Source: an uncultured Phycisphaerales bacterium
GTDB lineage: Bacteria > Planctomycetota > Phycisphaerae > Tepidisphaerales > Tepidisphaeraceae
DNA: 64,000 bases
Direction of reading: 5' to 3'
NCBI GenBank assembly: GCA_963844715.1
Contig: CAWJPJ010000006.1
Coordinates: forward strand, 1,088,001 to 1,152,000
Shown here: positions 58,169-64,000 of the stretch, in pieces
How positions within the stretch are numbered: position 1 is the stretch's first letter
Layout: every line of letters starts with the position of its first letter
Made by a program: the position numbers and the translations under genes
Notes under the pieces: model-generated
Told to the model about the DNA's origin: nothing
The model's database searches: none
The model's input: the letters and a program-made list of their open reading frames with translations, nothing else

Positions 58169-58582
58169 ATGCCAAAAACCGAATCGCGCAGCAAACCCGA
58201 AGCCCCACCCGCCACCCCCACTGAGCAGGAAGCCGCGCGCATCGCCGCCAGCCGCGAGTTTGCGATCGAGATCGCGCGGCTCGCGCAGAACACGCGCTGC
58301 CATAACATTCTGATCCTCGAGATGGCATCCGTCTGCCCGGTGACCGATTATTTCGTCATCGCCACAGGGACCAGCGCCCGGCAGATGCGCACGGTGTGCG
58401 ATCAGATCGACGAGATGGCGGAAAAGATGAATTTCAAATGCTTCCGCCGCAGCGGGTACGAAGCGTCAACATGGATCGCGGCGGATTATGTGGATGTGGT
58501 GGTGCATATTTTCGATGGGGAGGCCAGGGCGTATTACGATCTGGAAAATCTTTGGGGGGACGCGAAGAGGATTGGGTTTTAA
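58169..58582 (+). CDS. rsfS: Ribosome silencing factor (Iojap)
   Basis: TDYFVIATGTSARQM...WIAADYVDVVVHIF..EARAYYDLENLWGDA. Confidence 0.95.
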   Translation: MPKTESRSKPEAPPATPTEQEAARIAASREFAIEIARLAQNTRCHNILILEMASVCPVTDYFVIATGTSARQMRTVCDQIDEMAEKMNFKCFRRSGYEASTWIAADYVDVVVHIFDGEARAYYDLENLWGDAKRIGF

Positions 58583-58732: not shown

Positions 58733-61700
58733 TCACGCCGCGTTGGCGCCGCAGCATTTCTTGTACTTCTTCCCGCTTCCGCAGGGGCATAGATCGTTGC
58801 GTCCGACCTTGGGGGCATCGCGCACGATCGGCTTCACGGCGCCGGCTCCCTGGGTGCGATCGGAGGCTTCCTGCATTTCTCCTTTGGCTCCCACCGCGCC
58901 GACCGGTCCGACGGCCGCGGCGGTGGCGGCGACATTTTCCTTGACGCCGTAACCTCCGGTTGATTCGTGCACGGCGGCGGTTTCCTTGTAGGCGCTGCGG
59001 GTTTCGGCAGCCCCGACCACGCGGGCGCGGAAGATCAGGTCGGTCACTTTGTCGCGCACGGAGGCCATCATTTCCTGGAAGAATCGATACCCTTCTTTTT
59101 TGTACTGAACGCGCGGGTCCTCTTCGGCGAACGCCATCAGGCCGATGCCGGCCTTGAGCATGTCCATCGCGTAGAGATGGTCTTTCCAGGTCTGGTCGAA
59201 GATCTGGATGAGGACGAACTGTTCCAGATCCGTGAGTTCGCCGCGGATGAACTGGCGGCCGCGATTCAGGACGATTTCCCGAACCTGCTCGGGCGTGCCC
59301 GGGACGGCGAGCACCGGGCCGTCGTTGTCGTCGGGATTGAGGCGGATCAGAAAATCCTTATCGGTGAGTTTCAGCCCGAACCGTTCGTTGACGGCGCGGC
59401 GCAGCGATTCCTTTTCCGGATTTTGCGCGATCAGGTCGTCGACCGTCTTTTCGAGTTTCCCGCCGGTGAGGAATTCTCGCTGGGACGCGATGAGTTCCTC
59501 GCGCGAGCTTGGGAATTCCGACAGTTCGCACGTGGTCGAGGGACATCTGCACGCCGAATTTCTTCATGGCCCAGTCACGGATGTACTCGGCGATGTAGGG
59601 ATTATCCGCCGACGCCTCGACCCCGCCGAAGGCGAGCGTCAGGGCGTGATCCACGGGGTACTCGATTTCGCGCTGCGAATAGGCGGCCCGCGCCTTGGTC
59701 TCGATGAACGCCGCGATATCCTCGGAATTCTTGGGCGTGCGGCTTTTCACGTCGAGCATGAAGTCCTCGGCCGAAATCTTCAGCCCGAATTTCTCGTTGG
59801 CCCAGTTCGCCAGTTCGCGTTCGGCGTAGAGCGGCTCGAGGTATTTGAGCAAACCCGCGCAGCTGCGCTGCTCGATCTGCTCGACCGCAGCGAGCCGAAG
59901 CTTCTCCTCCAGTTCCCGCACATTGAGCTGCCGAACCTGGTTCTGAGATAGATGGACGTGAAAACGGCTCATCGCCCAGCTTTGCAGGCCCTTGGTATCC
60001 CACTGCTTGGTGTCCTCGGCGTCCTCTCCGGTGAACTCCGCGAGGGTCGCGGTCAGATTGGTTTCGGCCTCGGAGCGGGCCTGCGATTTGATGTACGACT
60101 CGAGTTCGTCGATCGACCTGCGGCCGATGAAGTCGGACGAATCGAGCGAGGTGGTGTCGAAATTCACGCGCGACCACTCGGCGATCGTCGCCGCCACGAA
60201 ATCCTTGGTGATATATTTCTCGACGGCGTCGTCGATCGACTCGCCGATCATGTCCCAGATGACCTGGTCCACGGCGGTCCCGACCAGCACGCGCTGCCGC
60301 ATTCCGTAGAACGTGTTCCGCTGATGATTGATCACCTCGTCGTATTCCAGGAGATTCTTGCGCGCCAGGTAGTTTCGCTCCTCGACCTTTTTCTGGGCGC
60401 GCAGGATTCCCTTTGAGATTCGCTTGTCCTCGATGGCCATCCCCTCTCCCATGCCAAGCCAGCCGAGGACCTTGATCGTCCACTCGCCGGCGAACATCTT
60501 CATCAGGTCGTCCTGAAGGCTGACGTAGAACCGCGACGACCCCGGGTCTCCCTGGCGTCCGCCGCGGCCGCGAAGCTGGTTGTCGATTCGCCGCGCCGTA
60601 TGCCGTTCCGTGCCGATGACGTGGAGGCCACCGGCCTTTTTCGTCTCGTCGATGAGTTTGATGTCCGTGCCGCGGCCGGCCATGTTCGTCGCGATCGTCA
60701 CGTTTCCGACGATCTGCCCGTGGGCGTTCTTATGACTGCTGTCCCGCCACGCCCACGATCTGCGCCTCGCGCTCGTGGTGCTTGGCGTTGAGGACCTCGT
60801 GCTCGATCCCGTACTTCCGCTTCAGCATGGTCGAGAGCATTTCGCTGTTTTCGACGCTGGTCGTGCCCACCAGGATCGGGCGGCCCTTCTCGTGCTCGGC
60901 CTTGATCTCCTCGATGATGGCTTCCCATTTCTCCTTTGCGGTTCGGTAAACGCGATCCTCGTGATCCGCGCGGGCGACCGGGCGGTTGGTCGGGATGGTC
61001 ACCACGTCCAGACTGTAAATCTTGCCGAATTCCTCGGCCTCGGTCTGCGCCGTTCCGGTCATCCCGGAAAGGGACTTGTACATCTTGAAGAAATTCTGGA
61101 GCGTGACGGTCGCCAGGGTTTGCGTTTCTTCCTTGATCGGCACGTGCTTCCTTGGCCTCGGTCGCCTGGTGCAGGCCGTCCGACCATTGCCGGCCGACCA
61201 TTTTCCGCCCCGTATATTCGTCGACGATGACGACTTCCATCTCCCCCTTCTGGCCGCGCTCGACGACGTAATCCTTGTCCCGCTCGTAAACCACATGGGC
61301 TTGCATGGACTGTTCCATCAGATGCGGCCATTCCATGTTGTTCCCGACGATAGAAGCTGCCGACACCGGCCGCTTCCTGCGCCGCGGCGATTCCTTCGTG
61401 AGTGAGATGCACGCTTTTGCGGTCCAACTCAACTTCGTAGTATTGGGTCAATCCGTCCTGGCGCTTCTGGGCATCCTCGAGCTGGCGTTCCGCCTCGGCG
61501 TGGCGTTTCCGGGCCGCGGCGGCATCGGCGCTGTTCTTCGCGTTCGATTCATCCCCTTCCGCCGCCTTGATCGAGCGCACTGCGCCGCCTGGACGATTTC
61601 CTCCGCCGCGTTCCAGGGCTTGTTCAGCTCAATCACCTTCCGCGCCACGGCGTCGGCGGCTCGATATTTCCCCGCATCGTCGTGCGCGGCACCGCTGATG

Positions 61701-62579
61701 ATCAGCGGCGTGCGCGCCTCGTCGATCAGGATCGAGTCCACTTCGTCCACGACGACGAATTCCAGCGGCCCCTGCACCTGAAGCGCGGCCCGTTCCTTCA
61801 TGTTGTCGCGCAGATAATCGAAGCCGAATTCCGCGTTGGTTCCGTAGGTCACATCCGAACCATACGCCGCTCGGCGCGCATCGCCGCCCGGGGCCATTTC
61901 GGTCTGGATGAATCCGACGGTTAGTCCCAGATTCTCAAAGGCCGGCCGAACCCACATCGCGTCGCGCCGGACCAGGTAATCGTTCACCGTGACCACGTGG
62001 CAATGATTCCCCTCCAGCACGCGCATGAAACATGCCAGCGGAGCGACGAAGGTTTTGCCCTCGCCCGTGGCCATTTCGGCGATCTTGCCTTCGTATAGAA
62101 CCAGACCCCCGATGAACTGCACGTCAAAGCAGCGGCACCGGAACGGCGGGCGGCTTTCGGGATAAATCTTGCGAACCGCATCGTAAATCTTCAGCGGAAT
62201 CGGCACCGTGCCGCCAGGATTGCCCCGTCCCGATCAGGGTCTGCTGCACCTGGTCGTAAACCTCCAGCATCTTGTCGTCGAACTGATCGGGATCGAAATG
62301 ATTCTCCGGATCGAAGATGGCCCGGATGCCGATGTTGCGGTCCATCGACTCGCGAATGATCCCGAACACCTCCGGCAGGACTTCGCTGCGCCGGATTTTT
62401 CCGCTGGTGAGCTGCTGGCGAATCTCCGCGGTGCGCTCGCGCAACTGCTGATCCGTCTTGACGCGAACTTGCGGTTCGATCGCGTTGATCTGATCCACGA
62501 CGCGGTGATACCGCTTCAAAAGCCGTTCATTGCGGCTGCCGAAAACTTTGGTCAGCGTCTTGCTAAAATTAATTGCCAT
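58733..62579 (-). CDS. secA: Preprotein translocase SecA (~1,280 aa, several frameshifts)
   Basis: [75 protein letters not shown]-terminal [18 protein letters not shown]. Confidence 0.97.
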
Positions 62580-62653
62580 GACACCCCTCCCTATCGGGGG
62601 ATTAAGAAAAGGGACGAATCGATTAAACTAGAAACTGAAAAGCGCCGGCCGAA

Positions 62654-62946
62654 TCAGCACAGCGGGGGAGGGAGGCGGAAATCAAAGGGGGAGAGATGAA
62701 TCGCCGAGGCGATTCGAACCGTCCTGGCGACGGAGACGGGGATGGCGGCGGGCTTGAGGTTGGTCACTCGCGGCTGGTACATCCGCAGGGGCGGCATGGC
62801 CCGCCGGAGCGACACTTCCAGGCGCTGAAAATCCGCCCCGCGACTTCCATTGCCGGCCGCTCGACGGGGGCGGCCATGCTAACGCGATCGGCGCATAAGG
62901 CCGTCGCCAAAAGAGTTACCGCGATGAAGTGCCTGGAACGTCGCAT
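62654..62946 (-). CDS. Putative secA leader (secretion-monitor-like) peptide, ~97 aa after correcting one indel near 62823
   Basis: MRRSRHFIAVTLLATALCADRVSMA signal-like N-terminus; the shifted frame reads RLEVSLRRAMPPLRMYQPR...HLSPFDFRLPPPLC*, ending 74 nt before the secA ATG. Confidence 0.65.
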
Positions 62947-63074
62947 AGCTTCAGTGCCGCTAGCAATATCCCCCCATCCGCCGGAAGCGTCAAGTCCGGC
63001 CATTGCGTTAGAATTTTAGGCCTATTATCCTGCGGTTTCCGCCGCTTTTGGGCGCGTTGCGTCTGGAGGTTGTT

Positions 63075-63946
63075 ATGTTTCATCGTCCATCAAAGCTGGG
63101 CTGGATGAGATTCGCCGCCTTCTCGATGGCCTGCCTGGCCGCCGCGGCCGTCGTAAAAGCCGACGATTGGCAACCCTGGTCCGGCGCCGGAGCGCCGGTA
63201 GCGGGATCCTCAACGCCCGATAACCGAGGCACCTCGCAGCCCCTCGTTTACGATGTCGCTCCGGCTTTTGCCCGAGCCGCGACTGCCCAGGCCCAGTTCG
63301 ACCTTGCCTGGACGAACATGACCGCCGCCCAGATTCGCGCTCGCGCTCAGTTTGAGCATTCGCCCGAATACGTCGCCGCCCAGCGCGAATTGGCTGATGC
63401 GCAATCCGCGTACGACGGCGCCTGCGAGGCCGTCATCGCGGACCTCCTCAAAGACCCGGCGTATCACAAGCTCATCGAAAAGCGCACGCAGGTTCAAATC
63501 GCTTTGGATCAGCACCCGGCTGACAGCGCCGACGTGCAGGCCATCGCGCATTTGAAAATGGAATACAGCGCCGCCGCCAGCCGCATGGAAGCGGATGCGC
63601 TGGCCGGCGATTCACAAGTTCAAAACGCGAAAACCCGGCTCCTTGCCGGTCAGCAAGTCGTCGATAGCATGATCCAGCGATTCGAGGACGCCTTCGCCAA
63701 CCAGCCGGCCGTGGCATTCGCTTGGAGGAATTATCAGAACGCGATCGTCAACCAGGCCGGGCGCAAGGATATCTCCAGGGCGCACTGATCACGCGCGACG
63801 ACGTGAATAACGTGAACTATCTGCGTTACTCCCCCGCGCCTAACAACGTTTACTGCGGCGCGCCGTACTACCCGACCTGGTCGTATGGGTGCGGAATCAA
63901 TCCTTACTTTTTTGGGTACTATGGGATTGTGGTGAGACGATTCTAA
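63075..63946 (+). CDS. Secreted coiled-coil hypothetical protein with Tyr/Gly-rich tail (frameshift near 63762)
   Basis: GGAGG RBS; signal peptide ending VVKA-DD; Ala/Gln-rich helices; joins ORF 63722..63946. Confidence 0.75.
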
Positions 63947-64000
63947 GGCGATCCATGGCTTTGGTCTCCGGGGATTATAGCTAAATTAGCGAGTTTATCG

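Follow-up and report, generated by a model that had tools for sequence, protein, structure and literature searches.

An LPPP-type leader peptide upstream of secA in a Tepidisphaeraceae genome: a probable secretion monitor from an already catalogued family

Does the short, disrupted reading frame in front of secA in an uncultured Phycisphaerales bacterium encode a peptide that monitors protein secretion, and how might such a peptide act on secA? The window analyzed here is a stretch of 64,000 nucleotides (assembly GCA_963844715.1, contig CAWJPJ010000006.1, positions 1,088,001 to 1,152,000), to which all coordinates refer. Genomes are labelled G; the assembly under study is G000, and G001 and G002 are congeners. 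A reading of the window from its sequence alone (the sequence-only reading) had proposed an arrest peptide feeding back on secA. Our main reading, to which we assign a probability of about 0.65, is that this ORF upstream of secA (uORF) is a secretion-monitor leader of the group uA_LPPP, that it is intact in the cell, that export relieves its stall, and that a stall left unrelieved frees the Shine-Dalgarno (SD) region of secA. The features are as follows.

58733..62579, minus strand: secA, split by six extra-base sites; all four pieces scanned match SecA models
62584..62592, minus strand: SD region of secA, AGGGAGGGG; -12.8 kcal/mol with the genome's own 16S 3' end
62633..62664, minus strand: terminator-like hairpin that spans the end of the uORF including its stop, with a U-rich run behind it; -10.3 kcal/mol
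62654..62827, minus strand: 3' half of the uORF, codons 41-97 and TGA; 32 of 56 residues identical to G001 residues 41-96; profile positions 41-98, E = 2.2e-10
62663..62692, minus strand: putative arrest motif S-P-F-x-F-R-L92-P-P-P95; predicted P-site Pro94 (62668-62666), placed by analogy with published toeprinting
62666..62675, minus strand: candidate anti-SD strand, Leu-Pro-Pro codons; 7-8 bp with the secA SD in either of two registers
62798..62850, minus strand: conserved middle helix, about residues 33-50, with a nearly invariant R-L (alignment A2; AlphaFold model of the G001 homologue)
62828..62831, minus strand: one-base deletion site (codon 40), the sole 1-nt gap in a DNA alignment with two congeners
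62830..62946, minus strand: 5' half of the uORF, codons 1-39; 27 of 39 residues identical to G001 residues 1-39; profile positions 1-40, E = 4.1e-10
62872..62946, minus strand: Sec-type signal-peptide-like segment, residues 1-25; basic n-region, hydrophobic stretch 7-19, family A-x-A site near 23-25
62965..62993, minus strand: sigma-70-type promoter-like element, TTGACG-17 nt-GATATT, 18 nt before the uORF start

The uORF runs on the minus strand from an ATG at 62946 to a TGA at 62656-62654 (62946-62654) and comprises 97 codons, including one two-base codon (codon 40). Its second frame (57 codons) ends in S-P-F-D-F-R-L-P-P-P-L-C, followed by the TGA. The gap between the uORF stop and the secA ATG (62579) is 74 nt, and both genes are on the minus strand, so that the orientation, the distance and the ATG, TGA and SD coordinates given in the sequence-only reading are all correct. 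Its view that the ORF track splits one 97-aa gene is also borne out, as the two halves (39 and 57 residues) match an intact 97-aa ORF of G001. A single base is indeed missing, but not near 62823, where it had been placed: the alignment with the congeners maps it to 62828-62831. The three closest intact homologues among the matches listed have Ile at the broken codon. A homopolymer need not be invoked as the cause of the deletion, given this Ile and the position of most errors outside long runs.

The quality of the assembly matters for how the break is to be read. We took 205 ORFs from 21 stretches of G001, of which 116 aligned well enough for an indel census. It gave about 0.83 frameshift events per kb, with 62 of the 116 compared genes apparently frameshifted. 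Of the 131 events, 57 are single-base insertions, 39 single-base deletions and 35 complex; the control was small (no frameshift in 3,857 columns, G001 versus G002), and some of the events may be alignment noise. Compared with G001, secA has six break sites with seven single-base indels, every one an extra base, and five of the six sites are absent from single short-read contigs. The missing base had been called the error type found throughout the window, which does not hold, as single extra bases are the commoner type (57 versus 39) and account for all seven single-base secA indels. Many of the extra bases in the assembly are outside homopolymers. The SecA relatives closest among named sequences (83% and 72%) are labelled Tepidisphaeraceae. 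The gene convergent with secA, at 58169-58582 on the plus strand, is rsfS (ribosome silencing factor), and this arrangement is syntenic in both congeners.

Because the assembly is rich in errors, secA itself is broken and both uORF halves are well conserved, the break in the uORF is most likely an assembly error. The opposite reading, a genuine frameshift that makes the leader a pseudogene in this strain, could draw on the short-read data, since none of the contigs listed spans 62828-62831 and a pattern search for the break junction in metagenome contigs gave no match. Four soil-metagenome DNA runs from one study hold 23-33% of the words of this sequence and may include the source sample; no RNA run holding these words was listed. 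We nevertheless regard a pseudogene as extremely unlikely: the essential secA has six such breaks, five of them absent from short-read contigs, 62 of 116 compared genes look broken, a 294-nt gene has a chance of about 0.22 of being frameshifted at the rate of this assembly, and both halves have stayed well conserved. For other split-gene findings in this genome, an artefact is to be presumed first. Over 62323-62660 (uORF stop, spacer and SD), a short-read contig has one differing letter and no gap.

With the halves joined, the peptide has the layout of an exported leader. The hydropathy of its N-terminal signal-like segment peaks at about 2.4 (2.4-3.2 in full-length relatives), as judged from hydropathy and alignment. 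Inspection of the alignment speaks against a lipoprotein signal (Leu at -1 of a conserved Cys) and against a Tat signal (twin Arg not conserved). The spacer from the signal to the motif is about 69 residues (residue 25 to Pro94), and the conserved middle helix is about 45-60 residues from the predicted stall site. An AlphaFold model of the G001 homologue (pTM 0.30) has helices at 2-25 and 33-50, the latter with a pLDDT of about 70-75, and an extended tail; the model suggests two helices and a linker, with no folded domain. The LPPP (L92-P95 of 97) is inside the last 15 residues. Genome-wide, LPPP is found within the last 15 residues in 35 of 41,732 stop-to-stop frames of at least 60 aa, and FxFRLPPP in a single one, the uORF described here.

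Both ends of the peptide are conserved upstream of secA, as the sequence-only reading had proposed to check. Loci from related genomes were retrieved through the similarity of their SecA, and the best 29 of 40 genomes were used. In each of the 24 same-family loci, secA is preceded by an ORF that ends in LPPP; among the five loci from other families, two have LPPP, one MPPP, one SPPI and one no such ORF. A profile of 21 members matches 37 of 43 same-family genomes and two of 257 other genomes of the class; these two matches (E = 5.7e-4 and 9.2e-4) have neither LPPP nor a nearby secA and were treated as false. Conversely, all 27 same-family profile matches that were cut out adjoin secA directly upstream. 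At E = 0.001 or better, 376 homologous proteins were obtained, and the best three intact 97-aa homologues among the matches listed share 81, 77 and 73 of 97 residues with the X-joined window peptide. LPPP is invariant in alignment A2 (21/21) and in the 120 homologues listed of these 376 (120/120); FxFRLPPP is present in 109 of the 120, with 1-3 residues between the motif and the stop. One locus (L004) comes from an unpublished genome (G004) and is included in the 24/24 count, in the 47-, 49-, 50- and 74-locus sets and in the class tally, but is absent from A2. Two contigs of genome G211 (C135 and C149) each carry a different uORF copy before a secA start (L110 and L111), which may reflect duplication or mixed strains. 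A Pfam and NCBIfam search with 21 homologues gave no family below E = 0.01 (scattered weak matches at E = 0.017-0.093), an Rfam scan of 61500-64000 gave no match, and a look-up of the uORF by sequence found nothing.

The family is, however, already catalogued. It is uA_LPPP, described by Fujiwara, Tsuji, Yoshida, Takada and Chiba (2024, Nat Commun 15:2711, PMC10987492) as 50 signal-bearing secA uORFs of Phycisphaerales, UBA1161 and WQYP01; this was the only work found in a search for literature on LPPP arrest peptides with secA in Phycisphaerae. By label count, 48 of the 50 members are from Phycisphaerales, and the group is described there as too diverse to cluster. It is delimited there as unannotated ORFs of less than 300 aa before a co-oriented secA, with LPPP (or XPPP) in the last 15 residues, an N-terminal signal or TM segment, a spacer of more than 30 aa, and an origin in Phycisphaerales, UBA1161 or WQYP01 (GTDB r202). 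The uORF agrees with this in size and position, LPPP, signal, spacer and C-terminal conservation, and we consider its membership nearly certain. The only UBA1161 member in the published set is 98 aa long, has its LPPP at 92 and is separated from secA by 92 nt. Aligned by eye, it agrees with locus L122 in 43 of the 57 C-terminal positions, and L122 in turn matches the same profile as the window halves (E = 2.0e-18). When the L022-L024 subgroup is left out of the profile, its three loci are still recognized (E = 2e-11 to 1e-4, four-sequence search), as is the window peptide, which ties the window to the published UBA1161 member. From the likeness of that member to L122, L024 and L022, we infer that Tepidisphaeraceae corresponds to UBA1161 of GTDB r202.

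The discovery value is thus small, as group, taxon range and stalling activity have been published (PMC10987492). The uORF shares with uA_LPPP the small size, the position before secA in Phycisphaerae, the N-terminal signal and the LPPP within the last 15 residues, but differs from the tested construct in length (97 versus 115 residues) and in the position of the Leu (92 versus 110). The clade studied here, represented by one sequence in that survey, is tight: its members, mostly 95-105 aa long, align over their full length and have an ALCADR-like signal end and SPFxFRLPPP. What this thin sampling leaves to add is a clean alignable set with the extended SPFxFRLPPP motif, a near-fixed length and spacer, and a conserved putative promoter of its own; the supplementary figures of PMC10987492, among them the motif logo in Fig. 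S7, may already show the extended motif or RNA structures.

Published assays on one family member bear directly on function. According to PMC10987492, its arrest fraction is 1 in B. subtilis PURE and is lowered by L110A and P111A; the in vivo index is 22.4 in B. subtilis and 1.59 (barely stalling) in E. coli; and one homologue arrests with the third motif codon in the P-site. According to its main-text passages on this point, downstream regulation was assayed only for uDF_RQH_Enterobacterales. Both our conservation data and this stalling fit the earlier proposal of an LPPP-type arrest peptide encoded before secA in a planctomycete. Its lack of visible similarity to SecM is also confirmed: SecM has 170 aa and FxxxxWIxxxxGIRAGP, the uORF has no RAGP, and no SecM model matched among 21 family members (Pfam and NCBIfam, E = 0.1). 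E. coli SecM is comparable in having a signal peptide, a C-terminal arrest and a stem-loop over the secA SD (PMC10987492), the last being a prediction for the uORF. The RAPP-like RQH family, ApdA/ApdP and ApcA are similar in having a short C-terminal Pro-Pro motif after Arg upstream of a sec gene. In the LPPP peptides, however, Leu replaces Ala/Gly, a third Pro follows and the Arg is not invariant; the uORF motif is RLPPP rather than any of RAPP, RGPP, RAGP, RAPG, HAPP or QAPP, and LPPP is treated as separate from the RAPP-like motifs in the published catalogue (PMC10987492).

A promoter-like element precedes the uORF, not secA. Elements with at least 9/12 matches within 45 nt of the uORF start were found in 31 of 47 loci and, in a second set of 23, in 12; control counts were 0 of 147 positions inside the uORF, a GC-rich and lenient control, and 2 of 74 before secA. 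The family form is TTGACG, 16-18 nt, [GCA]ATA[CGT]T, mostly 9-25 nt from the uORF start, which implies a short putative leader without an SD, of about 11-12 nt in the window. The conserved position of the element suggests that uORF and secA are cotranscribed from the uORF's promoter. A divergent ORF of about 240 aa (63048-63788, plus strand) has a signal-like segment, and DNA similarity to G001 extends across it; NCBIfam gave no match for it, and it may share the intergenic promoter region.

These data can be assembled into a model. The uORF would be transcribed together with secA from its own promoter, as its conservation suggests, and the ribosome would pause when the second Pro of LPPP occupies the P-site, a position taken from the one family member studied on B. 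subtilis ribosomes. By analogy with SecM, MifM and VemP, the N-terminal signal would engage SecA/SecYEG and the pull would release the stall. When export is slow, the stall would persist and the ribosome would cover the Leu-Pro-Pro codons that are otherwise predicted to pair with the secA SD; according to the folding predictions for this genome and G001, the SD would then be freed and SecA synthesis would rise. Stalling by the uORF peptide is highly probable and secretion-responsive control of secA is likely, while SD unmasking as the route in this genome is only slightly favored.

The SD itself is strong, being the second strongest among 74 loci, and the 16S 3' end of the genome carries the canonical anti-SD. 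The predicted MFE fold pairs the Leu-Pro-Pro codons with the SD over 8 bp. The complementarity of the R-L-P-P codons to the SD reported from the sequence alone is present, but the folded 141-nt region is not more stable than shuffles (z = -0.13); moreover, the 15-mer quoted for R-L-P-P really covers 62677-62663 and codes for R-L-P-P-P. In the G001 register, all ten pairs form in G001, while the window has seven contiguous pairs and one G-C to U-A exchange (a single event). For unmasking, a 30-nt footprint was placed at the published stall position and the costs of opening the secA initiation region were compared. The predicted gain upon stalling is 3.0 kcal/mol in the window (2.6-3.0 under other window choices) and 7.1 in G001, compared to 1.7 for the E. 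coli secM-secA control, which has the same sign and a gap of 61 nt versus 74 nt. The congener G002 has no such helix (gain -1.9 or 0.1 kcal/mol), and in the window the opening cost is still high when stalled (16.4 kcal/mol). Synonymous recodings reach the native gain in 9 of 60 cases for the window and in 0 of 60 for G001, and of 50 footprints paired with the window's SD, its own comes 16th. Since Pro and Leu codons pair with any G-rich SD, the pairing in the window is unexceptional.

Across the family the signal is weaker. The mean gain over 74 loci is 1.16 kcal/mol, compared to 0.21 for footprints moved 45 nt upstream and 0.07 for footprints moved 90 nt upstream. The Wilcoxon p values (0.009 and 0.001) overstate this difference, as related loci are not independent and the upstream controls, besides being more distant from the SD, contain less C. 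A gain of at least 1.5 kcal/mol is seen in about 23-24 of the 74 loci and a loss of at least 1 in 7-10. In an initial set of 49 loci, own partners paired better than crossed ones (z = -4.3, or -2.2 once the four strongest loci are removed; one unrelated control reached -2.9). This excess was not replicated in 25 new loci (z = -1.2), and family-wide SD/anti-SD covariation is rejected as unproven. Left out of the pairing sets were L027, L029, L092 (wrong frame), L079 (upstream DNA too short), 12 duplicates and 16 loci regarded as distant. The SD unmasking proposed from the sequence alone is thus predicted for the window and G001 but does not extend to the family, being predicted in about one-third of the 74 loci. 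Masking of the SD is credible here and in a minority of the relatives; it is no demonstrated family trait.

These numbers lend some weight to a variant in which the uORF is an arrest peptide but its coupling to secA bypasses an SD switch, the pairing being a by-product of C-rich Pro codons that face a G-rich SD. The stall might tether the bicistronic mRNA at the translocon, protect the mRNA or hand ribosomes over to secA. About two-thirds of the 74 loci are without predicted unmasking, the gap between uORF and secA varies from 55 to 287 nt, the median SD strength is about -6 kcal/mol, and the gain correlates with SD strength (Spearman -0.32). SecM arrest localizes secA mRNA to the membrane, which would fit such a route as well. 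We consider this variant fairly unlikely, as G001 has a perfect 10-bp helix whose gain is unmatched by 60 synonymous recodings and which differs from the window by one compensatory pair; in addition, single-structure thermodynamic folding can miss long-range switches. A further alternative takes the PPP as an ordinary EF-P-sensitive pause, so that the leader would report EF-P status or elongation stress instead of secretion. The genome encodes EF-P. In PURE lacking EF-P, the tested uA_LPPP member arrests E. coli ribosomes, while in vivo it hardly does so, for which its authors raised this very explanation (PMC10987492). The same member, however, arrests strongly in B. subtilis cells in a manner that depends on Leu110 (PMC10987492), and the signal peptide, the spacing and the F-x-F-R before the motif are conserved. 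RAPP-type arrest is refractory to EF-P according to PMC12992588, in the main text of which LPPP does not appear. Taken together, this makes a mere EF-P sensor highly unlikely.

The hairpin over the uORF stop raises the question of whether transcription is also controlled. It is common to the window and G001 (-13.1 kcal/mol), and its 5' arm is inside the ribosome footprint in both; with its U-run, it might act as an intrinsic terminator that a stalled ribosome prevents, so that RNA polymerase reads into secA. We rate such stall-coupled attenuation as very improbable, because the U-tracts are short and interrupted, the terminator scan found no such hairpin in the congener G002, and terminator-like hairpins occur in 7 of 49 loci, compared to 2-7 in six shuffles. 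On this count, a family-wide terminator or attenuator was rejected as well. In a combined version restricted to the genus, one footprint would free the secA SD and at the same time block a terminator hairpin stacking on the anti-SD helix. We consider this unlikely. If it were true, secretion stress would set both read-through into secA and its translation, while most of the family, having neither structure, would reach secA by a route that does not involve SD masking; both would be new compared to the Sec-monitoring peptides in the published work we could consult. Under our main reading of a secretion-monitor leader that unmasks the SD, the window and G001 form a test case for how a stall might induce secA and for the relation of LPPP arrest to EF-P.

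Several other loci have predicted structures or sequence features around the secA start. In L133 (G229:C31:21450-22850), the post-PPP codons and the stop are predicted to form a long helix with the secA SD over a spacer of 156 nt that is itself highly structured; the predicted gain of 13.6 kcal/mol is the largest of the 74. L061, L064 and L085 likewise have predicted helices that connect the stall region with the SD over a long distance. In 49 loci, a pyrimidine run immediately precedes the secA AUG, with C at -1 in 39 of them, and T and then C or T are frequent after the uORF stop.
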